From Podarcis gaigeae (taxonomy: Eukaryota): 64,000 nt of DNA. The DNA is taken from NCBI GenBank assembly GCA_964106915.2, contig OZ066928.1. One strand, given 5' to 3'. Position numbers and translations under genes: made by a program. This document shows, piece by piece, positions 31,563 to 61,899 of the stretch; the stretch's first letter is position 1; each line of letters opens with the position of its first letter. The notes below the pieces were generated by a model. That model was given only the letters and a program-made list of their open reading frames with translations, was not told the DNA's origin and did not search any database.

Positions 31563-31802
<240 letters not shown>

Positions 31803-32445
31803 TAAAAAAACTCCCTGCTTCTAGTCCCCCGTGTCTCTTCCAGTCCTAGAACCTCAGTGCCTGCATCTGCTGCAAAGCAGCCATCTGTGATGGTGAGGGG
31901 CATTGTGCCACACACAGCAGAGCTGAATGGACTGATCTGAAATTTTATTCCACTTCTTAAAGGCCTTGAAACCTCTGGGCCTCTCTTTCCCAAACAACAA
32001 TGCCATCCACCCCCAATACCACTTGGGAAAACTTGAGGGAATCTCAAAAGCAGTTTGTGGTGTGGTATTTTGGCAGCTGGGGGCTCTGCTATCCAAAGGC
32101 AAAAATCTCCCCAGACTTCCTCTAGCCCTTTGACTCCTTTAGGTGTTCTAGTTGATTCTGATCTAATAGCATGTGAGATACTTACCTGCTGTGCTTTGGA
32201 GCTGCACCAACAAGCGCAGGAGACTTGTGTCATCCTATCTTTCAGGAGGGGTGAATTTGCAGCCCACCACATGTTGCTGAATTACTGTTCCCAACCCTGA
32301 TGTTTTTCTGTGCTGGCCCTGGCTGATGGGAGCTAGAATCTAACAACATCTGGAGGGCTGCTGGTTCTCCAATCCTGATCTCAGTTCCCCAAGTGCCAAG
32401 ACAGGACCAGCCAGGCATAAGAGAGTACTATCAGCAAGTTGTATA

Positions 32446-32572
32446 GAATCATAGAATTATTGTTGGAAGGGGCCGTGTGGGTCATCTAGTCTATCTCCTG
32501 CAATGTAGGAATATTTTGCCTGTTGTGGGACTTGAGCCCAGATTAAGAGTCTTATTCTCTACCAACTGCACT
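32446..32572 (-). mobile_element. tRNA-Lys-like/CR1-tail SINE, degraded
   Basis: gaatcatagaatt...ggtcatctagt...caggaat-type tail plus gattaagagtct (reverse complement of the Lys anticodon arm). Confidence 0.7.
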
Positions 32573-32778
32573 ACTTTGTGGAAGCTCCAAAATTTGTAGA
32601 AGTACCATGAAATATTTAGGGGTGGGACCCTTGTGGGTGGGGGATGGGGAGACTCAAAAAAACAGCCCAATGCAGACTTTGTTCAGTGGTCATGAAATGC
32701 TCACTGTTTGTTTGTTTGTTTGTTTGTTTGATGGATGGGGTATCATAAACCATGTGCCATGTGCGCTAGAATGGAGTA

Positions 32779-33015
32779 CAGTCATACCTTAGGTTGAAGT
32801 AGCTTTGGGTTGCGCTCCATGGCAACCCAGAAGTGACGGAGCACGTTACTTCTGGGTTTTGCCGCTCGCTCATGTGCAGACGCTCAAAGTGACATCACGC
32901 GCATGTGCGGAAGCGGCGAAACACAACCTGTAGACACGCAGTCGTGTCTTACGTTTACTTCATGATGCGAAAAGGGCTCCGGAACGGATCCCGTTCATAT
33001 CCAGAGGTACCAATG
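32779..33015. mobile_element. Tc1/mariner-superfamily MITE, degenerate
   Basis: TA|cagtcatacctt ... gaggtaccaatg|TA ends, related to 8388-8617. Confidence 0.65.
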
Positions 33016-33333
33016 TAGCTGGAATCCTGAACAGAAAAGGCACGGCAAAAAGGTTTGTCTTGTGAGCTGGTTCTCACTGAGGTGGCAAACCCAGGTTGTG
33101 GTTGCAGCCTTTGAAATGTCTATTAAGGGTTTTCCAGGATTGGGTGCTCCTTCATGCTGAGCATTCTGCTCCACATACACCTGGGTCCCCATTTCCTACC
33201 TGCTGAAACTCCTTATTATTGAGGTTGGGTTTGGCAAAGCATACAACCACAATCAGCCTCCAAGCTTCAGGTCTGACATAGTGCAGCTCAGGTACAGGCT
33301 TAATATGTCGCTAAGAGCCAGGCCTATCACTGA

Positions 33334-33495
<162 letters not shown>

Positions 33496-33748
33496 TGAAA
33501 TAATCTTTTGGACTAAGTTGAAATACATTCCTGCATCCTATGCTACTGAGGTTTATTTTCTCTGCCTCTTTTTTGTGCCCTTGGGGTGTAAATTGGGTGC
33601 AGAGACAGCACTCCTAGGAAGACCCCATCAGTTATTTTCAGGCACCACCTCAATTCCCTCCATGCCGGTGATGCAAATCCCTAGCTCCAGCTGCATCCTG
33701 GGACCCATGTGCTGTGGCTGAAATGATGCATGGAGTCACACACCATAG

Positions 33749-33978
33749 CAGTGTGGTGTAGCGGTTAGCATGTTGGGACTAGTACATTGGAGACCAGGGT
33801 TCAAATCCCCACTCAGCCATGCAGCTCACTGGGTGACCCTGGGGGCCAGGCCCTGCCTCTCAGCCTAACCTACCTCGCAGGGTGGTTGTGGCGATTAAAT
33901 AAGGAGGGGAAGAACCATGGATCCCACCCTGAGCTCCTTGGGAGGAGAAACTAGGATCTAAGTGCAACAATTAAACAA
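33749..33978 (+). mobile_element. MIR-like/CORE-type tRNA-derived SINE
   Basis: A box tggtgtagcggt, B box ggttcaaatcc, core ctcagcctaacctacctcgcagggtggttgtg. Reverse copies near 37110-37295 and 46683-46920. Confidence 0.7.
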
Positions 33979-34188
33979 TTGCCCGGCAACAGATACTTAG
34001 GGGTGCTATTGCCACCTACTGTGGAGGCAGATCATTGCTGTCATGGTGAGTGGTCCTCTTTTAAAGCTATCTAGATTGGTGGCCATCACTGCCTCCTGTG
34101 GGAGGGAGTTCCATAGTTTAACAAGGTGCTGTGTGAAGGACTTCCTTTTGTCTGTCCTGAATCTTCCAACATTCAGCTGTGTTGGGTA

Positions 34189-34545
34189 CAGTGGTGCCCC
34201 GCAAGACGAATGCCTCGCAAGATGGAAAACCCGCTAGACAAAAGGGTTTTCCGTTTTGGAGGCGCTTCGCAAAACGAATTTCCCTATGGGGTTGCTTCGC
34301 AAGACAAAAAAAATCTTGCATCCCCCCCGCGGGGTTCTTTCGCTTTTTCTGCCCTTTTCTTAAGCCGCTAAGCCGCTTATCAGCTGTTCCGCTGATAAGC
34401 CGCTTAACAGCTGATCGCTGGAAGCCACTTGACAGATGTAGCGCTAATCTGCTAAGCTGTCAATGGGCTTGCTTCGCAAGACGAAAAAACCGCTAGACGA
34501 AGAGAATCGCGGAACGAATTCTTTTCGTCTAGCGAGGCACCACTC
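34189..34545. mobile_element. Tc1/mariner-superfamily MITE, CpG-rich (young)
   Basis: TA|cagtggtgccccgcaagacgaa ... ttcgtctagcgaggcaccactc|TA, with internal repeats of cgcaagacgaa/cgctagacgaa. Confidence 0.85.
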
Positions 34546-35470
34546 TATAACCAATGTGGTGCCCTGTAGCTCCTATTCTTCTGACCCTTGGCCATGCTGG
34601 CTGGGACGGATGGGAGTTGGAGTCCAACAACACCTGGAGGCCACCAGGTTCCCCAGCTTTGCCATAAGCTATTACTGGAATGCACTCCCTGTTGGGTGTG
34701 AGATTCCAAGGAGGCCTTGTGGAGCCAGGGATCTCACTTGGCCCTCTTCACCCAGTCATGCTCTCTCGGCCTAACCCAGCTTGCCTCCCTGTGTTTTTGT
34801 GAGGATGAAAGAGAGAGCCATCCCATCAGTGATCTGTGGTAGAAACGTGAAGGCTAAATAAATAAACAGACAGTGGAACAGATCAAAACTCAAGAATTCA
34901 GTTTGCAGTCATGGTTCCCAAAGTGATTGGTAGCACTCCCTGGTGGGCAGTAAGATCACCTGGAGGTGTACTATGGGGGATTTGACCCCAGATGCCACTG
35001 GATCAAAGTTCAGTTTCATGGAATTAATTAAATGAATCAATTTAATTGTATTCCAAGTCAATGTACAATTAAGCATTACTGTTTTGAATTTATCTCCACG
35101 GCCTTAGTGGGTCTTGGAAGCTGCTTTGTGAATAATTCTTTATCAAAGATAGGGTGCATTGGGGAGGAGTTTTATCTGAACAGTTCAGATGGTCTCTGCG
35201 TATGTGACACAGTTAAAAGTTGTGCAGATTTGTGGGAGGCCTATAGTTAATTGCTTGAGCCCCAGGTGTTGTTTGGTATTTCATTGTGGATCACTCAAAC
35301 ACCAAAGCCATGAACTTCCTATGGGTCAGCCCCCACCTTCTGCAGTATCTAAAGTGATTAGATGTGGGTGGGGGGGAGCCTGTCCCAGGGTTTTCTGGTG
35401 CCTGATGAGGCTCTGAGTCCTCTTGTTTTGCTTGCCACCTGTGTGAGCCCTAAACATACAATGAACTTGA

Positions 35471-35623
<153 letters not shown>

Positions 35624-37300
35624 TGAGTTTTTTCTTTGGAGGGCTTTTGCTCTCTGGAATTATGGATGCAATTAGAAAGGTGCAGAAAGGGGAAAATTGT
35701 AATCTCCAGTTAAGTGACATTCCTATATTAGCTTTCCTGTTGATGTTTTAGATTGTCACACTTCACATGGGTTCATTTGATATCACACTTACCTCCAATA
35801 ATTTTATTTTACTTTTAGTCTTTAGTCTTTATTCCATTATGTTTTCAGAGAGCTCAGGGTGATGTACATATTATTAACCATTCGTTTAAAGGATTTTTTT
35901 ATCCCACTCTTCAGTCAAAAAACTCCCCCAGAGCAGCTTATCAATTGCAACTTTAAATAGCAAAATGAACCAAAAAAATCAGTCTGTATAATTTAATGGC
36001 ACAAAAGGAAAGTGAATTTGGAGGGTGATGGAAATAAGGAAACTCGGGTACAAGTTCCATACCAGCTGGGATGGAAAAGCTCAAGGAGAGGTCAGTGTTC
36101 AGAGAGGTCAAGGAGAGGTCAGTTTTCCAGTGGAAGTGTGGACTCTCACATACTAAAGCACACATGATTTTATTCTTTAAAAAAGGAGGTTAGGCTGAGA
36201 AAGACTGATTGACACAGCTAATTGGGGATTTGAACCTGAGTCTCCCACATCTACATCTGCAGCACTGACTGCTCCCTATTGACTTAGCATAGAGCACCAG
36301 TGGCAATGTTGAAACCAGCTCTTGTAACTCTGTATGTTAGCTCTTCCCTCCTGTCTAAAGTTCACAGTGTATGGTTTAGGTTGTCCTGTTGGGTATTTTG
36401 TATGTGCTATAGAAGTTCAGCCAAGTGGCTAAGCTCACCACAGGAAGAAAAAAACTGTGTAGCAGAGATTGCTTTTACTTGGCCTACACAAACACATGCA
36501 CAAAATATGCACATACTATTTAAAGCTGCTACAGTAAATTTTCTCTTTCTGAGCCCAGAGGGGTTCTTTGCTTGCCAATTCCTTGCAGAGTCCACAAGGC
36601 AAATGCAAAATCTAGTTGCTAACAAAGTTCTGCAACTTCCAGAGTTCTCAGAGTCCTGAAGTTCTGAGTCTAGAGGTCTTGCATGTTGCTCGTCGTCTGT
36701 CAGACGAACCCTTTAGAACGTCTTCCACATTTTCACAGGCTTGTTCCAACAATCTCCACATTTCCCATAGATTCTCCTGCACGCCCCAGCACTGCAGCTT
36801 GAGCCCTTTTCTGCCCTGTGCCTAGTGATAGTTGGCCCAGCAACAGAGACATGACAGTCACAAGATGCCTCAGCTGCACATGGGCAAAATAACATTTCTG
36901 CCAACTCATGGAGAGCAAACCCCATGGTTTTTTTCCAGTTTCCTTAACGCTTTCCTTATTCCCGGATTAAAAGTACATGATTTAAGCCTTAAGTATATGG
37001 CTTTGGTCCTGTCCACCCGAAAGATCCTTTCTTCGTATCCACGAACCTACGTGGATGCCAAGATCCTTTGTTGATCACCCTCTCTTCATCCCATCAACTT
37101 CAGAGTAGCAGTTTATTCATTATTTCTTCATTACATTTGTACCTTACCTTTCCTCCAAAGAGCCCAAGTGGCGTACCTAGTTCTCCCTGCTCTTCTTTTC
37201 ATCTACACAACAGCCCTGTGAGGTAGGTTAGTCTGAGAGGCAGGGACTGGCCTAAGGTCACCCAGGGAACTTCATGTCTGAATAGGGTCTCCCACATCTT

Positions 37301-38580
37301 ATAGAATCATAGAATCATAGAGTTGGAAGAGACCACAAGGGCCATTGAGTCCAACGCCCTGCCAAGCAGGAAACACCATCAGAGCACTCCTGACATATGG
37401 TTGTCAAGCCTCTGCTTAAAGACCTCCAAAGAAGGAGACTCCACCACACTCCTTGGCAGCAAATTCCACTGTCGAACAGCTCTTACTGTTAGGAAGTTCT
37501 TCCTAATGCTTAGGTGGAATCTTCTTTCTTGTAGTTTGGATCCATTGCTCCGTGTCCGCTTCTCTGGAGCAGCAGAAAACAACCTTTCTCCCTCTTCTAT
37601 GTGACATCCTTTTATATATTTGAACATGGCTATCATATCACCCCTTAACCTCCTCTTCTCCAGGCTAAACATGCCCAGCTCCCTTAGCTTCCAGGCCTTT
37701 GACCATTTTGGTTGCCCTCCTCTGGACACGTTCCAGTTTGTCAGTGTCCTTCTTGAACTGTGGTGCCCAGAACTGGACACAGTACTCCAGGTGAGGTCTG
37801 ACCAGAGCAGAATACAGTGGCACTATTACTTCCCTTGATCTAGATGCTATACTCCTATTGATGCAGCCCAGAATTGCATTGGCTTTTTTAGCTGCCGCGT
37901 CACACTGTTGGCTCATGTCAAGTTTGTGGTCAACCAAGACTCCTAGATCCTTTTCACATGTACTGCTCTCAAGCCAGGTGTCACCCATCTTGTATTTGTG
38001 CCTCTCATTTTTTTTGCCCAAGTGCAATACTTTACATTTCTCCCTGTTAAAATTCATCTTGTTTGTTTTGGCCCAGTTCTCTAATCTGTCAAGGTCGTTT
38101 TGAAGTGTGATCCTGTCCTCTGGGGTGTTAGCCACCCCTCCCAGTTTGGTGTCATCTGCAAATTTGATCAGGATGCCCTTGAGTCCATCATCCAAGTCGT
38201 TGATAAAGATGTGGAATAAGATCGGGCCCAAGACAGAACCCTGTGGCACCCCACTAATCACTCTTCTCCAGGATGAAGAGGAACCATTGATGAGCACCCT
38301 TTGGGTTTGGTCAGTCAGCCAGTTACAAATCCACTCAGTGGTAGCATAGTCAAGTCCGCATTTTACCAGCTTCTTTACAAGAATATCATGGGGCACCTTG
38401 TCAAATGCCTTGCTGAAATCAAGGTAGGCTACATCCACTGCGTTCCCTTCATTTACCAGGCTTGTAATTCTGTCAAAAAATGAGATCAGGTTAGTCTGAC
38501 ATGACTTATTTTTCAGAAATCCATGCTGACTATTGGTGATCACAGCATTCCTTTCTAGGTGCTCACAGACTGTTTGCTTA
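37301..38580 (-). mobile_element. Young CR1 LINE, 5'-truncated, with a largely open RT frame
   Basis: ORF 37665-38543 contains [27 protein letters not shown] and FADD. The C-terminal part is in another frame after a short deletion near 37688; (attctatg)n tail. Confidence 0.95.
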
Positions 38581-39451
38581 AACAGTCCCGCTGGTGGTGA
38601 TGTGAGAGAGCCATTTGTGTGGTCTCTGCCATATTGTGGAATTCCCTCCCAAGATAGGCCAGCCTGGCTCCCTCCTTGGTAGTCTTCCTCTGGCAGCCTA
38701 TATGACCTTCCTATTCAAACAGACCTTTTGAAATGGAAGCGCAGACTATTCTGATCTCTGGGATGCTGTCAGGGCAAACTGCATTTTAATCGCTGGTTCT
38801 GAATTCACCCTGTTGAGGTTTTTTTAAAAAAAAAAATTGGGTTTTGTTTGTTTTATAACTTAGTATTTATAAAGTCGTTTAACAATTGTTGGAAGCTGCC
38901 TTGAATTCCAACTTAGGAGAAAGGCAGGATATAAATACTGATACTAATTCTAATACTGTATTCCCCTCTGTCCAGCCTCTACCTGCAGCCATCAATGGGA
39001 AGCACAAGAAAGAAGCCAGCATTTTAAATTCCAGGCTTCTCTCTCATTCATTTCACAGGCCTCATACAAGCGATTTTGACAAGCCACCTGTCAGTCATGT
39101 GGCATCATCAGGATGTGTGGCTGCTGCTGGTGTGGCCCCATCCACCTTCCCAGTTTGGTTTGCAAGGCCAGTCCTGGTAAGAATCCAGGACATGGAACAA
39201 AAAAGTCTCTGCACCCCTGCTTTTAAGGGTAACTTTGCTAAAAATAATTTAGATCACAGGAGGGGAAAACTTTTTTTAAAGTTCACATATATTAATGAAG
39301 AATTCATTTTTTAAAATTCCTTGCTTCTTTGAGCAACATTGCAGTAATATAGCACTAATATTATTTAGAGGAGTTATTCTGCAAACGCCGTTTAATCATG
39401 CCCTGCACCCTTTCACTGAATCCCCCCCCCCTCCTCTCACATGAGTGCATA

Positions 39452-39820
39452 AAGGTAAAGGTAAAGGTACCCCTGCCCGTAGGGGCCAGTCTTGCCAGAC
39501 TCTGGCAAGACTCTGTGCACCCATCTCACTCAAGAGGCCAGGGGCCAGCGCTGTCCGGAGACACTTCCGGGTCACGTGGCCAGCGTGACATCGCTGCTCT
39601 GGCGAGCCAGAGCTGCACACGGAAACGCCGTTTACCTTCCCGCTAGAAAGCGGTCCCTATTTATCTACTTGCACCCGAGGGTGCTTTCGAACTGCTAGGT
39701 TGGCAGGCGCTGGGACTGAGCAGCGGGAGCGCACCCTGCCGCAGGGATTCGAACCGCTGACCTTTCGATCGGCAAGCCCTAGGCGCTGAGGCATTTACCC
39801 ACAGCGCCACCCGCGTCCCG
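39452..39820 (-). mobile_element. Sauria SINE, young subfamily, with TSD
   Basis: 14-nt TSD cacatgagtgcata at 39438-39451 and 39821-39834; intact A and B boxes; (ACCTTT)n tail. Confidence 0.94.
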
Positions 39821-39846
39821 CACATGAGTGCATAGACCCTGACTAA

Positions 39847-40026
<180 letters not shown>

Positions 40027-40126
40027 TAAAATAATGCTGGAGTTGTTCATTGACCCAAGGGGGATGAGGGTTTTTTTGCTTTTAGTTATTGAAGGGGCCT
40101 CTTCTTCTATGCTTTTGCTTTATATC

Positions 40127-40369
40127 AAAAGGTAAGAAGGTAAAGGGATCCCTGACCATTAAGTCCAGTCACGGATGACTCTGGCGTTGCGGAGTTCATC
40201 TCTCTTTATTGGCCGAGGGAGCTGGCGTACAGCTTTTGGGTCATGTGGCCAGCATGACTGAGCCGCTTCTGGCAAACCAGAGCAGTGCACGGAAACGCCG
40301 TTTACCTTCCCGCCAGAGCGGTACCTATTTATGTACTTGCACTTTGACGTGCTTTCAAACTGCTAGGTT
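40127..40369 (-). mobile_element. Sauria SINE, older subfamily, 5'-truncated
   Basis: Same body as 26913-27253 but lacking the tRNA head. Confidence 0.88.
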
Positions 40370-40376
40370 CGAAGTA

Positions 40377-40740
40377 AAAAGGTAAAGGTAAAGGTACCCC
40401 TGCCCGTACGGGCCAGTCTTGACAGACTCTGGGGTTGTGCGCCCATCTCACTTAAGAGGCCAGGGGCCAGCGCTGTCCGGAGACACTTCCGGGTCACGTG
40501 GCCAGCGTGACATCGCTGCTCTGGCGAGCCAGAGCCGCACACGGAAACGCCGTTTACCTTCCCGCTGGTAAGCGGTCCCTATTTATCTACTTGCACCCGG
40601 AGGTGCTTTCGAACTGCTAGGTTGGCAGGCGCTGGGACCGAGCAGCGGGAGCGCACCCCGCCGCAGGGATTCGAACCGCCGACCTTTCGATCGGCAAGTC
40701 CTAGGCGCTGAGGCTTTAACCCACAGCGCCACCTGCGTCC
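40377..40740 (-). mobile_element. Sauria SINE, young subfamily, inserted at the 5' junction of the older copy
   Basis: TSD ctaggttcgaagta at 40363-40376 and 40741-40754. Confidence 0.94.
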
Positions 40741-41377
40741 CTAGGTTCGAAGTAGCTGCCTGTAAATATTAATATAGGTTAAAGAACAGATGAAAAAACC
40801 ACCACTGGGTTCGAAGCTTATTAAATGGAAATGCATTGTAGCAACAGCGTTTGGGGAGCAATTTTTGCTTTGAGCCCTACCCCCCCAAAAAGCCCCAACA
40901 CCTGTTGGATTTGTTTCTGTTTTTCCCCTATCAGGGCCCCAAAGCCTAATTCAACAGGCAGAAAAAAGCTTTAACTGTAGTATTTAATGTTGCTTTCAAT
41001 GAAACAACATTACATGTTAAGGAACGCTGTATAGCTCAGTGCTGGAACATCTGTTTTGCACACAGAAGTTACCCAGGTTTGGTCCCTAGCGTATTCAAGG
41101 TAAAACTCAGAAAGACTCCTCAGAGAGCTTCTGCCAGTCAGTGTAGACAACACTGAGCTAAATGGACCCAATGGCTTGACTCTGTATCAGGCAGCTTCCT
41201 GTGCTCCTGCAGTTTGCTAGCATAGGGTTCAAGATCAACCAGACAGTATTTTTAAAAACAACAACAACAATGGTCTAGCATTTTCATTTGAACCACTGCA
41301 CAAATAACCCCTTTGTGGGGAAAGGCAGTGGGTAAAGGAACAGCCAGCAATTTTGGGCTTCAGTAATTTAGCTACAA

Positions 41378-41535
41378 GGGATGCAGGTGGCACTGTGGTT
41401 CGCCAGAAGCGGCTCAGTCCTGCTGGCCACATGACCCGGAAGCTGTACGCCGGCTCCCTCAGCCAATAAAGCGAGATGAGTGCCACAGCCCCAGAGTCAT
41501 TCGTGACTGGACCTAATGGTCAGGGGTCTCTTGAC
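41378..41535 (+). mobile_element. Sauria SINE with large internal deletion
   Basis: Starts gggatgcaggtggcactgtggtt, then jumps to cgccagaagcggctcagtc...ggacctaatggtcagggg. Confidence 0.85.
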
Positions 41536-41640
41536 TAATTTAGATACAGTGCACCTGACCACCCATGGAGGGGACAGCTCTAGGCAAGGGATAACGGTAT
41601 GAAAGGGATCCCTTCTGACTTGAGCCTCTTCTGTCTTCAG

Positions 41641-41806
41641 GAAAACCTGAACTTGGCCTTGAACTCGGCCTCTGCCATTGGGTGTCATGTGGTCAACATT
41701 GGAGCAGAAGATTTGAGGGAAGGGAAACCACATCTGGTTCTAGGGCTTCTGTGGCAGATCATCAAGATTGGCTTGTTTGCAGACATAGAACTCAGCAGAA
41801 ATGAAG
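41641..41806 (+). CDS. PLS3: PLS3 coding exon 6 ([55 protein letters not shown])
   Basis: cag/gtaag boundaries, 166 nt, CH1 signature. Confidence 0.98.
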
Positions 41807-42879
41807 GTAAGCCAAAGGCTGCCCTCTCTTCCCATCCGGATGACGGACTAAGAACTACCCAGCAAAAGTCACTGCTGGACCCAGCCACCCTCTTATTTTC
41901 CTTTGAGCAGGCCAGTGTTTTGCATTTCGTTGTCATCACTGCTGCTGCTGTTTTGGAAAGAGGCTGGCCCCTATTTGTGGGAGTGAGCAAGCCAGTAAGA
42001 TGCCATGGTTAGAACACTGGTGTTTTTGCCACAGTTAGGGTATCCCTAAGGTGTTTTAAGCTATCCAGGTGCAGTCCCCAAAACTTCCCAGGTGGGACTA
42101 AGAAATCCTCCTGCTTGAAACCCTGGAGGTCCTCTGTCAGCCAGTGTAGACTAGGTGTGGAGACCCTTTTACCCTCTAGATGTCGCTGAAGGACAGCTCT
42201 CATCATCCTGGGCTGTGCTTGTTGAGGCTGATGGAAGTTGTAGTTCACAGAATCATAGCATTGTAGAATTGGTAGGGACTCCAAGGGTCCTCTAGTCCAA
42301 CTCCCTGCAACACAAGGATCACCACTAAAGCATTCTTTAGTGATGATGGCCATTCAACCTCTGCTTAACAATCTCCAAGAAGGAAAGTCCACAACCTCTT
42401 GAGGGAGACTGAGCTAATATAGACAGATTCTATATAAGGCAGTTCCCTATGATAAGTGGAGGGTCAAAGTTGTGTTTCCTGCAGAAAGTCCCAGATTCAG
42501 TCTATCACATATCCAGGTGGAGAACTCTGGATTCTGTAGTTGGGGACAGAAAGCATAGCTCAATAGTGCCAGAGAAGGGCCATAGCTCAGTGGCAGAGCA
42601 CCTGATTTGCATGCAGCAGATCTCAGATTCCATCTCCAATGGCATCTCCATTCAAGCATCTCCCTGCTTGAAACTCTGGAGAGCCTCTGCCAGTCAGTGT
42701 AGGCAGTACTGAGCTAGATGGATCAAGGGCCTCATTCAGTATTAAGACAACTTACTTCCTCCCTTAACCAAATGTGATTATGCCCCTCTTAAATAGCTTC
42801 GTTTGGGAGGAACGAAATGCAAACCTAGCCTCTCCCAATGGTGCTCTCCAACATCCATGACCCCGTCCTTTTGTTTCAG

Positions 42880-43022
42880 CCTTGGCTGCCTTGCTCCGAG
42901 ATGGGGAGACTTTGGAAGACCTGATGAAGTTGTCTCCAGAGGAGCTGCTCTTGAGGTGGGCCAACTTCCACCTGGAAAATGCTGGGTGGCACAAGATCAA
43001 CAACTTCAGCTCAGAGATCAAG
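42880..43022 (+). CDS. PLS3: PLS3 coding exon 7 ([48 protein letters not shown])
   Basis: cag/gtatc boundaries, 143 nt. Confidence 0.97.
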
Positions 43023-43885
43023 GTATCTGTGGGGCTGGAGACAGTGGGGTGCCTTGTCTAAGCAATAAAGAAATGGGCTACAACTGATGTTCTGACTGCC
43101 TTGCAATGATCCCACCTTAAACATCTGGCTACAGGCATAGTTCTCGCTTTGTACAGAGAACGCAAACAGTGGGGGAGAATTTCACGCCCATCTCTTCCGG
43201 GTTGAGGGGTTTTGCCGAGGCTGCCTGGTCTGAGGGCCCTTGAAATCATGTTAACTTTTCAACTAGGGAGGAGCATACCTGTGACGCTCTAGCTTTTATG
43301 GGGCTCTCGCCTTCCCTAACCAACATGGCCAATGGCCAATGGCCAAACGGCCTTCTGTGTGCTGTTCATGAGGCAGAAACAATGGCAAGATTTAAACATT
43401 GCCTAAAGACCCATCTATTGAAGCAGGCATTCCCAGACTCAACAGATGCATTTATTGATATTCAACATAATATTAAACCAGTAGCTTCTCTGCTTTTACC
43501 AATGTATTTCTTTGTAATTTTGGTTTTAAATGTTCATACATATTTATTTTTATTTTTAAAAACCACCTTACTGTGCTTTATGTAAGCCACTTGAGGATTT
43601 TGCACATTAAGTGGTATATAAATATTACTGAGGGTGAGGATAATGAATTATTCCTACAGATCTTGCTGTAGCTTTGGGAGTGGGAGGCACCCCCTCCCAA
43701 AAAGCTGGATTATCTACTGGGGAATATTCCCTGGTTTTTGGAATTGAAACTATTTTCCACTGGTTCCCATCTAACCACCTTACTTCTCTTCTCTCTTTCT
43801 CTCATGCTTCCTGGATTTCTGCTGTCCTTCTTTCGCTCTCTTGCCTTCCTTTCTCTCCCCCTCCCCTTGCTTTTATTTTTGCAAG

Positions 43886-43912
43886 CTCACTGACTTCAGT
43901 AACTCTGTTAAG
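43886..43912 (+). CDS. PLS3: PLS3 27-nt alternative microexon (LTDFSNSVK), phase 0/0
   Basis: gcaag|ctcactgacttcagtaactctgttaag|gtatc; frame-preserving; preceded by a ~100-nt pyrimidine tract and ctaac at 43771. Confidence 0.8.
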
Positions 43913-44043
43913 GTATCAAAGCAATGTGTACCTCCTCAGTGTTTTAACTAATTTAATGGTGCCCGGTCTTGTATGTGTCTTCTGCCTTGCAGTAGGCAAA
44001 CCAATGGCTGACTCTCTTCTTCCTCGTTTTTGGTCTGCTCCAG

Positions 44044-44139
44044 GACTCCAGAGCATACTACCATCTCCTCAACCAAATTGCACCCAAGGGACAGAAGGAA
44101 GGGGAGCCGCAAATTGACATCAACATGTCTGGCTTCAGT
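44044..44139 (+). CDS. PLS3: PLS3 coding exon 8 ([32 protein letters not shown])
   Basis: cag/gtaagt boundaries, 96 nt. Confidence 0.97.
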
Positions 44140-44629
44140 GTAAGTCATCCCCATTCTTGGGCTGCTACAAATCTCTTTAGCATCGGGACATTATAGTTGC
44201 CTGGCTTTTGGTTAATTTAAAACACCAGATGCTGTTGAAAGAAAGTGGCACCTTCCCACTGAATTTTGCATGGGCAGCCCCATGTAGAACCCGGGTCTTC
44301 TCCATGCATAGCAGTTGCTTTATAGCCCTTCCCCTACCATACAAAGCTGCCTTCTACTGATTCAGACTGTTGGTCCATCTGGCTCACTATTGCCTACACT
44401 GACTTGCAGTCTCCAGAGTTTTAGGCTTTGCAGCACTACTTGGAGATGCTGGGGACTGAACCTTCATGCAAGGCAAGTGTCCTAACACTGAGCTGTGGAC
44501 CTCCCCACCCCAGCTTGTTTTGTTGGTGGTGGGTGGTGAAGAGGGCGAGCCCTGAACATGTGGGATTGGGCAATTGGTCTGCTAATCACCACTGCCCTGT
44601 GATGCGGTTGAAGAAGGTCCTCTTGATAG

Positions 44630-44995
<366 letters not shown>

Positions 44996-45309
44996 TAGAG
45001 AGGTGGACAGCTGCAGGTGCTTTTCTCTCTCCTGCACATGCACATTTTCTTATGTTCAAAAGTTATGCAGGGGGCAACTGGGAAGAAGACATTTCCTGGA
45101 GACTCACATGGTGTGTTCACAACTCTCTCTCTCAGAAACCATGCTGCCCTGTTCTGCCCAAGCTTTGCAGATTTTTAAGGATTAAATGGATTTTTTCTCG
45201 TATACTTGGATAACTTTAATTTTCGCTGTGGTTGCATTAAAGGTTTTCTGATATTTAACTTTTTAAGCTGCCTTCAGTGTTGTTGTTGTTTTGTAAAAGG
45301 GGCACCTAA

Positions 45310-45423
<114 letters not shown>

Positions 45424-46110
45424 TAAGTAGCAGGCTCACTGCCTGCCTTGTTTGGAGCAATCGGTTTCTGATGCATAGAAGGGGAGCGCCCATTGTCCCT
45501 GACCATTGGGCTTGCTGGCTGGTGGTGATGAAGTCCTTCTGCATCTGGGGAGCCACAGAGGGTTTTCATCCCTGCTGGAACCTACAGGTGACTCTACACA
45601 TGTGGGGGTTATGTTCTGGGGCCCTGTGCATGAAATCGTGTAAAATGGGGAGCACCCTCTAAATGCCCTTTCAACGCCCTCTCTGCCACTTCCTCTTCAA
45701 TCCTTACCAAAAATACTGTATCCAAAAATATCCACAACTAGAATTGAAGCTCTAGGGAGAAAGCCGCTGCTGCTGTGCTGCCCCACACACCGGTTGTTAG
45801 GTGGGGAGGTCGAGCAGTATAAACAAAGCCTCAGTGCCTCCAGTCTCTTCGGGGCTTCCTCCTTCCTCACATGTCCTTTTTGCGCTCTGGGGAGGGTCTC
45901 TTCATGAGCCACGAAGACTCCAGCTCTCGCCCACCTTTTCTGGGTTTGAATTGAGCTATTTAATTATTTCCTGGCACTGCGTGTATGCCCAGTTGTGTGT
46001 GAGTCGAATGCATGTAACTCCGGCAGGGGTTGTGTCTGTATTTTAAATATTGAGCTGGTTTTGCTTTAAAAAGAAAATGTCCCATGTGGCAAAAACACAT
46101 CAACTATTAA

Positions 46111-46275
<165 letters not shown>

Positions 46276-46966
46276 TAGAAACGGTTTTGTACAAATTCAG
46301 GGTTCAGATTCAGTTCACATCACAGACGGACAGAGCCTGCTGCCTCCCCCACCTCCCCAGCTTGCATAATTGTGTTCTACAGCACACAGAACACCTGGCA
46401 GCTGTGCCTGGCAGGAGTGGAGCAAGCATCACAACAAAGATTCTTCCCAGGAAGGTTTGCCCATAATTGCTGTTTCCATGGAGGAAGGGAAGGGAAGGGC
46501 TGTAACTCAGCAGAAGAGCACCTGCTTTTTCAGTGGTGGTTCCCCAATTTGTGGAATGCCTTCGCTAGTGAGGCGCACCTGTCTCCATTATTCTTAACAT
46601 TCAGGAGGAATTAAAAAACTTTCCTTCTTACTCAGGCATTTGGGAGCTGGGGAATATTGTTCCAAGTAACCCCAAGATTTTTCTATTTATTCATGGAATC
46701 TGTATCCCTCCTTTTTCTCCAAGGAGCTCAAAGTGTCAGACATTGTCCTCCTCCTCCTTGTTTTAACCCCCACAGCAACCCTGTGCAGTAGATTAGGCTG
46801 AGAGGCAGTGACTGGCCCCCAAAATCACCATGTGAGAGCTTCATGGCTGAGTGGGGATTAGAACCCTGGTCTCCCAGGTCCTAGCCTGAGATACTTAACT
46901 GCAGGTGGGACTGCACCATAGTAGGCCAGCTGGATTGCGTCAGTATAAGGCAGATCACACAATCTA

Positions 46967-46969
<3 letters not shown>

Positions 46970-47014
<45 letters not shown>

Positions 47015-47052
47015 CCTCCCTCCCTCCCTCCCTCCCTCCCTCCCTCCCTCTC
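46970..47052. repeat. (CT)n(CCCT)n pyrimidine microsatellite forming the polypyrimidine tract of coding exon 12
   Basis: Read directly; ctaac lies just upstream (~46964). Confidence 0.9.
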
Positions 47053-47080
47053 CACAATTTCCCCCTTTCCCCACGAGCAG

Positions 47081-47214
47081 CTGGAAAATTGCAATTATGC
47101 CGTCGACCTAGGGAAGCATCCGGCAAAGTTCTCCCTGGTTGGCATTGGCGGGCAAGACCTCAATGACTGCAACCCAACTCTCACGCTGGCTGTAGTGTGG
47201 CAGCTGATGAGAAG
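47081..47214 (+). CDS. PLS3: PLS3 coding exon 12 ([45 protein letters not shown])
   Basis: gagcag/gtatc boundaries, 134 nt. Confidence 0.97.
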
Positions 47215-47793
47215 GTATCATTGAGCTTTAGTTTTTGACGTGTGCAAATGCTTCCTTGTAGGACGAAGGCCTTGGTGTGGGCTGCCCACAGGGCTTCCAC
47301 TGTGGGCAAACGTTTCAGAAAAGGCTTGGGGCCTTTTGTGTCTGGTGTGGTTGCTTTTGCTGTTGTTAACCCAGCTTCTGCTCTCACACGGAAAAACAAA
47401 GAAGGTCCACTGGTGCAGCTTCTTTCTTCCCCCCCCCCTTTTTTTAAAGAAAAAGGGAAATAAAAAATTGTTTGCTTATTCATGTGGAAAATTAGGGTCT
47501 GGAAATAATTTGAAGCCCCAGCTATAAGGGAATGACTATGGAAATGTCTTGAATTAGGAAAAATTGACAAATCAAGAGTTGACAACCCCACAGCATATTG
47601 AGGACCCCCCCCCTCCTGATTTAGCCCAAGGCCTGCAACTCTTGTCCCTAGTTATCCTAGGAAGACTTCTGAGAAGTTTTTTCTTGCTCATTAGCCACCT
47701 TTTCACTGCTAAACCCCAAGCAGGTTATTTTATTTGGAAGTTCTCCTCTGTCTTTTGTGATGAACAATGATATCTCCCTTTTCCTGCTCCTAG

Positions 47794-47917
47794 ATATACT
47801 CTGAACGTCCTAGAGGATCTTGGAGATGGTCAGAAGGCAAATGATGACATTATCGTAAGCTGGGTAAACAAGACCTTGGCAGAAGCTGGGAAATCGAGCT
47901 CTATCCAGAGCTTTAAG
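47794..47917 (+). CDS. PLS3: PLS3 coding exon 13 ([41 protein letters not shown])
   Basis: tag/gtgca boundaries, 124 nt. Confidence 0.97.
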
Positions 47918-48573
47918 GTGCAAAGCATTCCTCTCTCTTTCTTTTAAAATGGGTATTGGATTTCTTGCCTTTATTCTAGCATAAATATTCCTGAAATGGT
48001 GCAGCCTGGTATTTTTAGGTGGGTGTGTCTGTAGCCACATTCTGGGCCTGAGGCCATCCTGACAGGGAAAAACAGGAAGCTTCTCTTGTGGAATAATTTT
48101 CCCCATGCAGACACCTCTCTGACAGTGAGCAGTTTGCTAGCTTCTTCTAAATCTTCCATCATCCACAAATAACTTAGGCCTTGTTCTAACTGATGTCTGT
48201 GAGACTTCAGGCTGTCATTAGTATCTGGGTGTGAGCTGCTGCCGTGAGTTCTTGTTCCTCCATTTAAACATCTCCCTGCTTGTAGATAAGGAGGCTACAC
48301 TCAAACTATCCTCTGTGACAAGCTACTGCTCTTTATTTATTTATGGAGGTGCAGTCCACCAATTGAGTGGCCACCATCTGTAGTCTGGTTCACTGGTTCA
48401 TAGTTCTGCACGGTTCTCAATGCTACAGAGCTGCACTAGTGCTGATCCTAACTCAGGGTAAACTGATTGAAATTAATGGGCGTGGCTAACCGAGATGGTT
48501 TAATTTCACTGGAACTGCACTTGAGTGAGTAGCTGGACTTAGCTGGATGCAGCCTGTAGATACTGAATATCAG

Positions 48574-48707
48574 CAGGGCTTCCTTTCAGCCAGAACTCAC
48601 CAAATCTCAGCTCCGGTTCCTTTCTGGTGGGTGCCATTGCCATTCTAAGAGAACAAGGGAGATATTCATGGGGAGTTCTGGTACCTCTTTTTCTAGAAAA
48701 ACCACTG
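48574..48707. mobile_element. hAT MITE
   Basis: 8-bp TSD aatatcag at 48566-48573 and 48708-48715. A related copy lies at ~52718-52880. Confidence 0.8.
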
Positions 48708-48842
48708 AATATCAGGTTGTATGGCAGATTCTTAGAGATGATTAAACACCCACAAGAGATTTTTGTAGATCTCAAGAAAGAAATATTGATTATTCCCAAG
48801 TGTAAGAGCTGCTGTTTGTTCCATTGCATTGGTTTTTCCCTT

Positions 48843-49602
48843 GTGTGGAGGACTCCCTGGTCCTGAATGGGGTAACTGTGCCCCTGAAGGACCAGGGGCA
48901 CAGCCTCGGAGTCATTCTGGACTCACAGCTGTCCATGGAGGCACAGGTCAATTCTGTGTCCTGGCAGCTGTTTACCAGCTCCATCTGGTACGCGGGATGA
49001 GACCCTACCTGCCCACAGAGTGTCTCGCCAGAGTGGTGCATGCTCTGGTTATCTCTCGCTTGGACTACTCCAGTGCGCTCTATGTGGAGCTACCTTTGAA
49101 GGTGACCTGGAAACTACAACTAATCCAAAATGCGGCAGCTAGACTGGTGACTGGGAGCGGCCACCAAGACCACATAACATCAGTCTTGAAAGACCTACAC
49201 TGGCTCCCTGTACGTTTCCGAGCACAATTCAAAGTGTTCGTGCTGACCTTTAAAGCCCTAAATGGCCTCGGTCCAGTATACCTGAAGGAGTGTCTCCACC
49301 CCCATTGTTCTGCCCGGACACTGAGGTCCAGCGCCGAGGGCCTTCTGGCGGTTCCCTCCCTGCAAGAAGCAAAGTTACAGGAAACCAGGCAGAGGGCCTT
49401 CTCAGTAGTGGCACCCGCCCTGTGGAATGCCCTCCCACCAGATGTCAAAGAGAAAAACAACTACCAGATTTTTAGAAGACATCTGAAGGCAGCCCTGTTT
49501 AGGGAAGCTTTTAATGTTTAACAGATTATTGTATTTTAATATTTTGTTGGAAGCCGCCCAGTTTGGCTGGGGAAACCCAGCCAGATGGGTGGGGTATAAA
49601 TA

Positions 49603-49650
<48 letters not shown>
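48843..49650 (+). mobile_element. L2 LINE 3' fragment with (TTA)n tail
   Basis: ORF 48829-49521 contains ISRLDY, LQLIQNAAARLVTG, LHWLPVRFRAQFK and RAFSVVAPALWNALP. Confidence 0.93.
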
Positions 49651-49651
<1 letters not shown>

Positions 49652-49747
49652 CAATTCAACTGTGTGTGTTCTATGTATGAATTGTCTGTCACCCGCTTCC
49701 TCAAATTTTAAATTACGTTAACATACTGCCCCCCTTCTCTCATCTAG

Positions 49748-49872
49748 GACAAGAGTATTAGCAGCAGCTTAGCCGTTGTGGACTTAATTGATGCCATTCA
49801 ACCTGGCTGTATAAATTATGATCTTGTGAAGACAGGAGATCTGTCAGAGGAAGATAAACACAGTAATGCCAA
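49748..49872 (+). CDS. PLS3: PLS3 coding exon 14 ([42 protein letters not shown])
   Basis: tag/gtaag boundaries, 125 nt. Confidence 0.97.
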
Positions 49873-50545
49873 GTAAGCCTCTTTCCTTCTTCTTCAGTGT
49901 CCTATTTTTTTTAGCATTCTACCAAATGTATTCTCATTTGAAACTCTGGCTCCAGGTCTAGTGTGCAGACCTCATAGTCCAAAAACATATGCTGACCCCA
50001 GAATTTTTGCTTTCAGGATTCCACATTTAAAGCACATGACTCCCTGCAAAGAATCCTAGTTGAACTGCGGAACTCACTCCCACAGGAGGCAGTGAGGGTC
50101 GCAAACTAGGTGGCTTTAAAAAGGGGATTTGGCAAATTCACAGAGAAATTTGGAGCTGTCCGTGGCTACTAGCCGTGGTGCTCAGTCTCCCACTTGGGGG
50201 CAGCAGTGCTTCTGAATGGCAGTTGCTGGAAGCAGCAGGAGGGGAAGGGGCTCTTGCGATCGGGTCTTGTTTGTGTTCTTCCAACGGGGTACCTGGTTAG
50301 CCACTGTAAGAACAGGACGCACAACTAGAAGGGCCTCTGGCCTGATCCCGAAGGGGTCTGCTTCTGTAATTTGTTGTGGTTCCTGGGAATTGTAGCTCTG
50401 TGAAGGGGAAACTACAATTCCAAGGATTCCTAGGAGGGTGAAATCATGTGCTTTAAATGTGTGCTGGATGTGCTTTCATGTATGTTGTGGATCTGCCCAT
50501 AGTTGGTAAAATGGGGAAAACTATTCTTTGACAGTCTCAGACCCC

Positions 50546-50910
50546 CAGGGCCAGATTTAGGTTTGATGATTTAGGTTTGATGAGGCCCTAAGCTACTGAA
50601 GGTAATGGAGCCTCTTATATGTCCAGCTGTCCTTTGTCAACAACAAATTGTCACTGTTTTTTGTGTTGAATATATGCTATATGGTAATTGATGGACCTAA
50701 TAGGTATCTAAAGCCATTTGCACATAACAAATAGGAGCCTACACAACACAAAACACTGTTGCTGTATGTAGGTTTTATTTTATTCATTTTTTATCTTATA
50801 TTTTGGAAATGTACATCCAGGGGTTTTTTTTGTTTAATTTTTTTGGGTGGCCCCAAGAGAGTGGGGCCCTAAGCTATAGCTTGTTTAGCTTATACGTAAA
50901 TCCGGCACTG
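50546..50910. mobile_element. hAT MITE
   Basis: TIRs cagggccagattta / taaatccggcactg; 8-bp TSD cagacccc at 50538-50545 and 50911-50918. Confidence 0.87.
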
Positions 50911-51031
50911 CAGACCCCACATGATTGGGTGTAGATCTCTTCCTCCTCCTCCTCCTCCTCCTCCTCCTCCTCCATTGTGGTCAAGTGGCAAAAGGGTTCA
51001 AGACACCTGACATCCCTTCATTTGCTCCTAG

Positions 51032-51164
51032 GTATGCCGTGTCAATGGCTAGGAGAATCGGGGCCCGTGTGTATGCTCTCCCCGAGGACCTGGTGGAGGT
51101 GAAACCCAAGATGGTAATGACAGTGTTTGCCTGCTTGATGGGCCGAGGAATGAAGAGAGTTTAA
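51032..51164 (+). CDS. PLS3: PLS3 last coding exon ([43 protein letters not shown])
   Basis: tag acceptor and TAA at 51162-51164. The C-terminus is identical to plastin-3; the summed CDS is 1893 nt. Confidence 0.98.

Positions 51165-51271: not shown

Positions 51272-51304
<33 letters not shown>
51272..51304 (+). repeat. (CAG)11 in the PLS3 3'UTR
   Basis: Counted directly; followed by caacaa. Confidence 0.93.
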
Positions 51305-51309
<5 letters not shown>

Positions 51310-57228: not shown

Positions 57229-57234
57229 TTTATT
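57229..57234 (-). terminator. Candidate polyadenylation signal of the nyctalopin-like gene
   Basis: AATAAA on the - strand ~88 nt after the stop codon. Confidence 0.4.
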
Positions 57235-57321: not shown

Positions 57322-57788
57322 TTACAAAGCCTTGACAAGGAGATTGTGGATACCTAGTTGCTTAGGTAACGAGAACACAGCTGAGTATGAGGCCCAACAG
57401 GCAAGGAGGAGGCAAAACGATTTCTCAGCAGCAGCAGCAGCAACAACCAGGTGAGAAGCCCCACTTGGGTAGGGCCCATCGCAGCCTTCTTCCTTCATGA
57501 CCCCAGACTGTGGCGGGCAGCTGGGTGAGGCCCCCTGAGCATGCTGGCCAAGCTGAGATGTGTTGTGAATGGTGGGAAAGGCACAGTGCAAGCCCTCAAT
57601 GACCCCTTGGTAGCTGAGGATCCAAGTGGCGAACCACAACATTCCGCAGTCACACTGCCAAGGGTTGTGTGACAGGAGGACGTATCTCAGCTTGGGGAGC
57701 TCTACCAGGAGGTGGTTGGAGAGGTAGCTCAGGTTGTTCCTGTTCAAGTGGAGGAAGTCCAGTTCCTTCAAGTGTGCGAAAGCAGGGC
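57322..57788 (-). CDS. Nyctalopin-like LRR protein, last coding exon (final LRRs, LRRCT NPWQCDC...C...C, hydrophobic putative GPI/membrane tail)
   Basis: Acceptor ctcccctccctgactgcag| at 57789. The phase-1 junction gives ...IVSIA-G-PAFAHLKELDFLHLNRNNL, completing an LRR; stop TAA ends at 57322. Confidence 0.9.
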
Positions 57789-58302
57789 CTGCAGTCAGGG
57801 AGGGGAGAGAAACTGGATTTCATTTGCATTCGATGGCAAGCAGTCAAATTCACGCTTCTCAAACCAATAGGCAGACTGAAATGCAGCTGGTCCTTTGACA
57901 CCTGCCCTTCTCAGAACTTTGTGATGTGGTTCTACAGACAACCAAAGCACAGATTAGGCAGAAATGTGCATAAATATGTATATTCAAAGTACAATCAGAA
58001 CTTACATGCATTTAACTGGCATGATTCCAACCGTGTGCAGTTGAAGGTTGTCTGGTTGAAACACTGCAAGCAAGATGGAGAACTTGGAAGAATTTTTTGC
58101 ACTGCATTTTCCAGGTGTGGAAAGAGCTTTTAAGCTCTCTGCCTCACTTGGGGGGCAAGGCCCACTTAGCATGCTGGCTCCAGAAGGCTGGCAATGCTTG
58201 TGCAGCAGCAATTCCAAGGGGGCAGTTTGAGCATACACATTTTTGAGTGTACACATAAGCCTTGGAACTTAACCCACACATAAGCTGTTATCATATTGTA
58301 TA

Positions 58303-58545
58303 CAGTGGAATCTCGTGTTACATACCGTCCTCCTTGAAAACGCTAGGAGGTTACAAGCTCTGCTAACCCGGAAGTAGATGCACCTTGTTGTGAACTTTGC
58401 CCCGGGATGCAAATGGAAGTTTTGTACCAGCAGCACAGCAGTAACAGGAGGCACCATTAGCAAAAGCGCACCTCAGGTTATGAACAGTTTTGGCCTAAGA
58501 ACGGACCTCCGGAATAAATTAAGTTCGTAACTGGAGGTACCACTG
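58303..58545. mobile_element. Tc1/mariner-superfamily MITE in the LRR-gene intron
   Basis: TA|cagtggaatctcg ... ggaggtaccactg|TA; related to 8388-8617. Confidence 0.78.
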
Positions 58546-59098
58546 TATATACACAAGGTTCAAGGTCTTTGCATGAATTTACAAAGCCCAGAACAAGTTA
58601 GACTAGGCCAGCTCAGGGACCACCTAAACCCTTATCTCCTTGCTTGATCAGTGAGATCAACACTGGAGTGTCATTGATCATTCTTTGAGTTGGTGAGGCT
58701 CACTTGATAACAGCAAGAAATAGAGACTTTAGTGTTATCAGCACAGTCCTGCAGAATGCTCTGTCAATAGAGATTCAGCAGATCAAATAATAAATTAATA
58801 AATATTGATGAAAATTTTGTGTGCAAAATTCACATTAGTAAAAATCACTTGTGCTGACAGTACATTAGCCATATGTATATTACTCCATTGTTTCTTAGCT
58901 TAATGTATACAAAAATGTGTTTATTAGGTACAATTGTACAATTATCATGGAAATGCTGATGAATTTTCGCAAGGCTGTTGTTGTTGCTTTTAAAGCCACA
59001 AATTCCTACAGAAATGTGGGAGCTTTTAGAATTTAAGATGGGGGGGAGGCATGATAAACTAAGAGGAACTGAAATGGACAAGACCTGTCCATTCTTAC

Positions 59099-59945
59099 CT
59101 GCAATGGACACAATCCGGTTGTTGTTGAGATAGAGCCTCTTCAAGTTCTGGAGACTGTCGAAAGGGCAGCTGATCCTGGTGAGCCGATTGGCCTCTAGGT
59201 GGATGCTCTTGAGCTGCGTCAATCCACTGAAGAGCTGATTAGGCAAATTGGAGAGACGGTTGTGTCCTAAATTTAACGTGCCAAGCCTGTCCAGTTGGAG
59301 GAAGGCGTCCTTCTGGATGGTCCAGATGCGATTCTTTCGGAGGTTCAGCTCTCTCAGGGCTCCCATGTCCTTCAGGGAGTCTCTACCGATGGCTTCAATG
59401 TGGTTCCTCTCCATTGACAGCTGTGTGAGGCTCGTCAGGCTCCGGAAAGCTTGTGGGATGTAACGCATGTTGTTGGAGGTTAGGTCGAGGGCTTCCAAAG
59501 AGGGGAGGTGGGAGAAAACAAAAGGGTGGATTTCAAAGAGGTTGCAGTGGGATAAATCCAAACTGATGAGGTTATGAAGGCCTTGGAAGGTGTTGGCATG
59601 GAGGTAGGTCAGCCTGGGGTTCCTGCTGAGATATAAGACCCGCAGGTTGCAGAGTGACTTAAAAGCTCCCGGGTACAGAAAAGTGAGGTTGTTGCGATCC
59701 AGCCAGAGGCTGTTCAGGTAGGTGAGGTTGCTGAAGGCATCGGTGGTCAGCAAGCGCAGAAAGTTATTGGACAGGTTCAGCGAGATGGTGGAAGCAGCAA
59801 TTTCCCTAGGGAGGCTGCGGAGTCCAGCGCTGTTGCAGTAAATGGTGGCACCAGGGGAGCAATTGCACAAGGAGGGGCAAGTCGAGGGGCCCAAGCCAGG
59901 CCTCAATGAACTGGTGAAGATCAAAAGAAGAAGCAGGAGGTGCAT
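59099..59945 (-). CDS. Nyctalopin-like LRR protein, main coding exon (signal-peptide-like N-terminus, LRRNT CPSLCNC...C, tandem LRRs); exact start uncertain
   Basis: Regular LxxLxLxxN repeats collinear with nyctalopin. Donor GCAG|gtaaga at 59099/59098; the ORF-track tail past this point is intron read-through. Confidence 0.88.
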
Positions 59946-60848: not shown

Positions 60849-61899
60849 TGAAGAAAGCATTTAATAGCTTGCTTGTCTGCCGGCCCCTGACATCCTTAGA
60901 TGCTCTTCACCTATGATCTGCCTTTTGAGAATTTTGTTGTAGCTGTTGCTCCCTTTAACTTTCTAGTTCAGTATGTGAATCTGTTCTGATGCCTTCTGTG
61001 ACTTGAGGATTCTGCTTCAACCAGGGCATCCCTTGTCATTCTACACAACAGCCGTGAATCTGTGTGGTTAAGCCCGGATCTACTGCAATCCCATAGAAAG
61101 TGGGGTCGGGGCTCCCATGCAACACTTTTCTCCCCAACTAGACTCCATTACCCAAAGAGGGTCTGGCTAAGCAAGGACAGTATGGTGAGTTGCTGGAAAT
61201 GTGACAGGCTGCTTGTCCTCCTCTTCCTCCTCCTTGAATGGATGTGGATTTATTTTTATTCTTTAGATTTCTTACTTGCCATTTATCATAAGGAATGCGG
61301 CAGGCTTCTGAGTTATACAGCACTCTTCATCTGGCATGAAAGGTAAGATGTCCAACCACCACACGCTCTGTGCAACATATTGTGTGATGAATACTTTTAA
61401 TAAACATACCGTGTTTGTTATTTGATTTATTCAACTTTTATCATGTATTTCCATCCAAAGGGGCCCAGGGCAGCAAACAACAAAACTATCAAAGCAATGC
61501 AAAGATTTTGAAAATGTTTTAAAACACTCAAATATCCTCAAAATTTCAAAGACGCCAGAAGCAGACTATTTCTACAAAACAAACAAACAAAACCATTATG
61601 CTGAAATGTTAATAACATACACAGCTCACCATGGAGGGTATTCCAGAACTGAGGAGCCACCAGTGAGAAGACCCTGTCATGGCAACATCCAGCAGCAATA
61701 CCACCCAAGGACCCAGCTAAGGACTTCAGGGTGCTGTTTTTTTCTTACAGAGTCTAGGCTAATATGATACCCTTGTTTTGTTTTTTGTTTTTTATATGGC
61801 TGGAGTGGGGGCTGGAGGGATGAAAACCATGGGCTTGGAGAGGGCCCCTTTTACTCATTAAATTCCATGCACACACAATTCCAACCGAAGCAGATGGGT

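Follow-up and report, generated by a model that had tools for sequence, protein, structure and literature searches.

We analysed a 64,000-nt stretch of Podarcis gaigeae DNA (contig OZ066928.1, assembly GCA_964106915.2), hereafter called the window. Two exons on its minus strand encode a 437-aa leucine-rich repeat (LRR) protein with no in-frame stops, and the two-exon, phase 1 model of the first-pass annotation (59945-59099 and 57788-57322) was exact. The features of this gene, referred to below as Nyx2, and of its neighbour PLS3 were as follows.

31629..51164, plus strand: PLS3 coding exons found, convergent with Nyx2; their end lies some 6.2 kb from its stop
57229..57234, minus strand: candidate polyadenylation signal AATAAA, 88 nt beyond the Nyx2 stop
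57788-57322, minus strand, 467 nt: last coding exon, with LRR strands 11-12, LRRCT, stalk C385, a small-residue site near 392-395 and the hydrophobic tail
59098-57789, minus strand, 1310 nt: intron, GT-AG, phase 1
59945-59099, minus strand, 847 nt: main coding exon, with a signal-peptide-like N-terminus (aa 1-19), LRRNT, LRR strands 1-10 and the Nyx2-specific C260
59946..60060, minus strand: open stretch 5' of the signal-peptide ATG, beginning at a splice acceptor at 60061; likely 5' UTR
61337-61276, minus strand, 62 nt: candidate upstream exon, matching the newer P. muralis model XP_028571718.2

The neighbour had likewise been named correctly, since the convergent exons at about 31.6-51.2 kb preferred plastin-3 over plastin-2/LCP1 in both exons tested (108 vs 61 and 71 vs 59 bits). 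A (CAG)n tract lies at 51272-51306 on the plus strand, about 110 nt beyond the PLS3 stop. Nyx2 may here consist of three exons, not two: a 1215-nt GT-AG intron joins the candidate exon 61337-61276 to the next exon in frame, and the three-exon product would be 496 aa long. However, the additional 59 residues from the in-frame ATG of the upstream exon precede the signal-like stretch and are absent from the other aligned orthologs, so this exon is likely a 5' UTR. Four putative RNA read sets placed low-depth pieces on exons and intron alike with the splice joint unseen, and were uninformative either way. The Nyx2 intron carries a multi-copy repeat near 58350-58550 (hundreds of unrelated contigs match 58443-58553), and upstream of the gene the stretch at about 61895-62030 resembles by eye a tRNA-derived repeat. 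A pseudogene or a chance ORF at this locus was ruled out by the intact frame, the 97% identity to P. muralis and the conservation across species.

The window protein is identical to P. muralis XP_028571718.1 at 424 of 436 positions (97.2%) and to the P. raffonei protein at 429 of 437. Gil et al. 2025 divide the Nyx clade into two gnathostome paralogs and name the second Nyx2, which in their data comprises five sequences from Gallus, Tinamus, Podarcis (XP_028571718.1), Latimeria and Xenopus (PMC11917481). The gene is therefore already on record under that name, and its proteins are labelled 'nyctalopin-like' by NCBI; it is not a new paralog, and the earlier view of it as an unrecognised gene has to be dropped. 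The available text of Gil et al. does not go into the synteny, losses, residues, expression or function of Nyx2 (PMC11917481), and our literature searches (gene names, accession, nyctalopin-like, nyx with snake gene loss) found no further work on it. What the present analysis adds is a wider range of orthologs, a faster rate than that of Nyx1, a distinct concave face and a pair of cysteines restricted to Nyx2.

The phylogeny proposed by the first-pass annotation was run with 41 rows, namely 19 Nyx2, 17 Nyx1 and 5 outgroup rows (CHADL halves and one unnamed LRR protein); Latimeria was entered as a newer model, and IGFALS, LRRC15, LRRTM, RTN4R and LRIT were left out. The window protein grouped with the two Podarcis Nyx2 rows (100/100) inside a Nyx2 clade (91/97), and the Nyx1 clade (100/99) did not contain it. 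This agrees with the proposal of an ancient nyctalopin paralog distinct from the true NYX ortholog. Pairing of Nyx1 with Nyx2 reached 88/91, which is under 95% bootstrap and was obtained with a thin outgroup; the same node has 88.8/93 in Gil et al. (PMC11917481). Three of their five Nyx2 sequences (P. muralis, X. tropicalis and Latimeria XP_014351734.1) were recovered by our database searches, and both paralogs were present in P. raffonei, P. muralis, L. agilis, Anolis sagrei, Latimeria, Ambystoma and X. laevis. We thus regard it as virtually certain that the window gene is an intact Nyx2 ortholog with a sound reading frame, paralogous to Nyx1. In the tree it grouped neither inside the Nyx1 clade nor with the other LRR proteins included, and it is not the only NYX-like gene of Podarcis.

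Pairwise alignments led to the same assignment. Whole Nyx2 aligned with each of six Nyx1 proteins in one stretch (220-245 bits, aa 21-356), with eleven LRRs and the caps collinear, and exon 1 gave a single stretch of 170-194 bits against all six, whereas two CHADL proteins gave at most 65 bits per stretch and the best IGFALS stretch gave 85.5. The collinearity claimed earlier was confirmed on non-mammalian Nyx1, not on human NYX, the two P. raffonei paralogs being identical at 131 of 337 positions (39%) with 4 gap positions. In the Atlas, the nearest named clusters to Nyx2 were nyctalopin. Word searches with Nyx2 queries missed Nyx1, which was reached via a fish nyctalopin exon (1 real match among 11 loci); this exon retrieved 175 proteins among 298 candidates, nearly all of the 120 listed being named nyctalopin, and led to Podarcis Nyx1 via its cluster.

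The predicted architecture of Nyx2 is that of a secreted, 12-strand LRR horseshoe held between two cysteine caps, followed by a short stalk and lacking a cytoplasmic domain. Pfam recognised LRR_8 (E 1.3e-44) and weakly an LRRNT at aa 23-49 (23.6 bits, below the cut-off of 25.8). An AlphaFold2 model of the P. raffonei ortholog, which is 98% identical to the window protein, was built from 41 aligned rows with a mean pLDDT of 85.6; each repeat has one strand, and confidence drops from about residue 350. The best fold matches of this model (22-32% identity) included LRRTM2, LGR4, the Nogo receptor and chondroadherin, and no nyctalopin chain stood among the best 60 PDB matches listed. CHADL/chondroadherin, IGFALS, LRRTM2, RTN4R (Nogo receptor) and LRRC15, the top PDB matches, share the LRRNT-LRR-LRRCT horseshoe but align to Nyx2 in several broken stretches and differ in repeat counts and domains. 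Nyctalopin, a class IV or non-canonical SLRP of the ON-bipolar signalplex, is much closer: both paralogs have the same 25- and 23-residue repeats, a Cys replacing the ladder Asn at 134, a four-Cys C-cap (C328, C330, C351 and C373 in the window protein) and a hydrophobic C-terminus. On the other hand, the nyctalopin N-cap has six Cys in the pattern Cx3Cx3CxCx6Cx3C (PMC3317652), whereas that of Nyx2 has four (C23, C27, C29 and C37; Cx3CxCx7C). Nyx2 also differs by the extra C260 and C385, a one-residue deletion near 260, a much shorter stalk and a different concave face.

C260 and the stalk Cys (C385 in the window) were found in 42 of 42 Nyx2 rows, and C260 in 0 of 31 Nyx1 rows; the pair is best read as one putative intramolecular disulfide, which the output of the structural model did not show. 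Of the 42 tails, 35 were hydrophobic (11-residue window >= 1.8) and ended 26-69 aa past the stalk Cys; the remaining 7 were weakly so, and the coelacanth model not at all. Short, hydrophobic and with no conserved cytoplasmic part, the tails are as expected for a GPI signal, and by hydropathy the C-terminus appears GPI-signal-like. For nyctalopin itself, a GPI link in human and one transmembrane segment in mouse are described (PMC3317652). Latimeria XP_064422775.1 (P0434) has neither a hydrophobic tail nor a clear signal peptide, and is either a secreted form or an incomplete model.

Rates and faces were compared over aa 53-351 in 42 Nyx2 and 31 Nyx1 rows, with conserved positions defined as those at 85% or more in both groups and the concave, convex and core faces assigned by repeat register rather than from the structural model. 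Each of the six species pairs showed faster change in Nyx2 than in Nyx1 (for instance, identity was 68.9 vs 87.9% for lizard-bird, 58.2 vs 79.9% for lizard-coelacanth and 60.9 vs 79.5% for lizard-Xenopus), and the window protein was 39.6% identical to Podarcis Nyx1. Among the 72 concave positions, 12 were conserved but different between the paralogs and 9 were conserved and the same, compared with 20 and 71 among the other 202 positions (Fisher p 0.003). The convex side had 16 different and 31 same, and the core 4 and 40; concave against convex alone (12/9 vs 16/31) was not significant (p 0.11). The concave differences were concentrated in repeats 6-12; there, Tyr, Asp, Arg and Phe of Nyx1 correspond to Ser, Asn, Gly, His and Glu in Nyx2. 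Repeat count and irregular repeat lengths were common to both paralogs.

The distribution of Nyx2 was surveyed in protein databases by shared words, an approach of imperfect sensitivity that missed the coelacanth protein. A search with exon 1 gave 92 proteins at E <= 1e-30 among 1652 candidates (91 of the 92 belonging to the Nyx2 family and 85 carrying a species name), and a second Nyx2 search gave 69 matches among 309 candidates. An HMMER search of 50% representatives, of whose 150 listed rows 147 were giant multi-LRR proteins and 3 were Nyx2, added one new member, that of the coelacanth. Nyx2 was thus found in lizards, turtles (among them Chelonia mydas, which Gil et al. do not list), crocodilians, birds, frogs, salamanders and coelacanth, a range that no longer fits the idea of a gene kept in reptiles only. 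In the two word searches no Nyx2 was named from a mammal, snake, caecilian, amphisbaenian, or ray-finned or cartilaginous fish. The same protein collection does contain Nyx1 from 17 snake species, at least 3 caecilians, Rhineura and many fish. That the gene has no obvious mammalian counterpart was thereby borne out, within the imperfect sensitivity of these searches. Nyx2 appears to have been lost in mammals and snakes, the absence in snakes being suggestive. Word searches also found none for Zootoca, Tiliqua and A. mississippiensis, but such single-species absences mean little because the searches miss members. A crocodilian pseudogene was ruled out by the Alligator sinensis protein, which is open and conserved from aa 70 onward. 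Nyx2 persists in nocturnal geckos and in the burrowing skink Lerista, and none was found in ray-finned fish although these include species with cone-rich retinas. Snakes and caecilians have lost other light genes too (PMC12836464, PMC12043008). In the axolotl, six distinct Nyx2 proteins (P0046, P0118-P0122), 94.6-99.8% identical and all on sequence of one length, likely represent a recent tandem expansion.

The first-pass annotation had also proposed an extra intron. The intron is present in the lizard, but it looks lineage-specific: in the chicken cluster, unspliced bird gene calls on contigs of 10-19 kb continue across the lizard junction, so that the lizard intron is likely a later gain. 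In a teleost nyctalopin exon (metagenome contig L009, 512-817, plus strand), the boundaries are introns inside the LRR region, indicating that intron positions are labile across the nyctalopin family. As to chromosomes, PLS3 is X-linked in man, and in Podarcis nyctalopin lies on a 108-Mb and Nyx2 on a 51-Mb chromosome. In lacertids, the Z is the counterpart of chicken 4p and human X (PMC6534595), and the Z of P. lilfordi measures 50.7 Mb (PMC10214862). From these correspondences, Nyx2 is probably Z-linked in Podarcis. The split of Nyx1 and Nyx2 likely arose in vertebrate genome doubling, and we take the PLS3 and NYX regions to be a 2R-type paralogon pair. The chicken 1 / 4p pairing is unnamed in the available text of Simakov 2020 (PMC7269912). 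A supplementary figure of Gil et al. labels two lamprey sequences within 'Vertebrata Nyx1', which would date the split before the lamprey-gnathostome split, i.e. to 1R, but their main text sets the lamprey sequences apart from both paralogs (PMC11917481).

Nyctalopin works between presynaptic LRIT3 and TRPM1 and is needed together with LRIT3 to place TRPM1, an LRR-LRR contact being proposed (PMC13224074). Taking this role together with the sequence anatomy of Nyx2, we tentatively propose, with a probability of about 0.45, that Nyx2 is an adaptor at retinal synapses, GPI-tethered and working with a partner other than that of Nyx1. Tethered at the cell surface, it would help to assemble the photoreceptor-bipolar synapse complex in the cone-rich retina of non-mammalian tetrapods; its concave face would bind an LRIT-type or channel ectodomain distinct from that of Nyx1, and a C260-C385 disulfide would tie the stalk to the horseshoe's back. 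The gene would have been born in vertebrate genome doubling and then lost repeatedly. The retinal site is drawn from the paralog and from the loss pattern. Counting for the proposal, Nyx2 has stayed about 58% identical to the coelacanth protein over aa 53-351, most tails are hydrophobic, C260 and the stalk Cys are constant, the concave face differs from that of Nyx1, and no Nyx2 was named from snakes that do have Nyx1; counting against it are the missing six-Cys N-cap, the faster evolution, the fish without Nyx2, the weakly hydrophobic tails, the nocturnal geckos and Lerista that retain the gene, the concave-convex contrast that fell short of significance, and the limited sensitivity of the searches behind the loss pattern. 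A NYX entry was not found in the accessible texts and supplements of the atlases searched (e.g. PMC7837701, PMC10719112), where listing under a LOC number is possible.

The same divergence fits equally well with a surface or matrix LRR protein acting elsewhere than in the retina, be it in cartilage, skin, the ear, or immune or other neural cells, in which the nyctalopin role was abandoned after duplication, a reading that we consider doubtful. The different concave face, the lost N-cap Cys, the new Cys pair and the faster rate would all be expected of it, and the six near-identical axolotl proteins suggest a local expansion. Moreover, the lineages without Nyx2 share traits beyond eye reduction, as snakes, caecilians and amphisbaenians are limbless. 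Among non-canonical SLRPs, the neighbouring clades Chad and Tsku are skeletal or visceral, but Nyx1, the sole close paralog of Nyx2, is eye-biased even in catshark (PMC11917481). The membrane-anchor-like tail is also unlike secreted matrix SLRPs, and positive evidence for any other tissue was not found.

A narrower form of the retinal adaptor is unlikely in our judgement. It would make Nyx2 the dedicated synaptic organiser of a retinal channel exclusive to non-mammalian tetrapods, such as double-cone or extra cone bipolar circuits, with its own LRIT-type or TRPM partner and a re-tuned concave face, with separate losses in mammals, snakes, caecilians and amphisbaenians as their eyes passed through dim-light bottlenecks. 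Amphibians, reptiles, birds, monotremes and marsupials have double cones, and fish and eutherians do not (PMC13332834). The link to them is not a neat fit, as a coelacanth Nyx2 exists and a marsupial copy was not found.

Quite improbable is a role as auxiliary subunit of TRPM3, matching that of Nyx1 for TRPM1, with both pairs split at the first vertebrate genome doubling. The presumed 2R-type pairing of the PLS3 and NYX regions speaks against it, and the fast evolution of Nyx2 could misplace the lamprey rows, whose Nyx1 label would otherwise suit it; the placement in the main text of Gil et al. is a further objection. TRPM1 and TRPM3 did split in 1R, with cyclostomes keeping TRPM1 only, but TRPM3 is kept in all gnathostomes examined (PMC13143021) whereas Nyx2 is patchy. 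We give slightly less credence still to a redundant back-up of Nyx1 that shares LRIT3 and TRPM1 in a subset of ON-bipolar cells: the common repeat plan and the 9 concave positions conserved in both paralogs agree with it, but the 12 positions fixed differently and the low identity to Podarcis Nyx1 do not. The weakest reading, the pineal or parietal-eye role entertained by the first-pass annotation, draws on the overlap of the apparent absences in mammals, snakes, caecilians, Rhineura and teleosts with pinopsin losses, and is weakened by geckos, turtles, birds and crocodilians that keep Nyx2 without a parietal eye (crocodilians without the whole pineal complex) and by agamids and varanids that lost pinopsin and keep Nyx2 (PMC12836464, PMC12043008).

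Nyx2 is on record but uncharacterised. If it is retinal, the extra cone circuits of birds, lizards and frogs would gain a molecular marker and a component open to testing, and Nyx2 would lend itself to comparison with nyctalopin, the night-blindness protein, to find out by which surface the latter contacts LRIT3 and TRPM1. Repeated loss of Nyx2 would place a synaptic gene among those that disappeared in nocturnal and burrowing lineages. Should Nyx2 act elsewhere, it would be one more retained vertebrate ohnolog.

The coding sequence also has two minor peculiarities. An alanine run before the tail (window about 57425-57445, minus strand) has 6 residues in the window and 8 in P. raffonei and is missing from the other lizards. 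An extra Cys99 with no obvious partner is missing from the aligned turtle, bird and amphibian rows, and occurs in Podarcis, Varanus, Pogona, Anolis and Hemicordylus.
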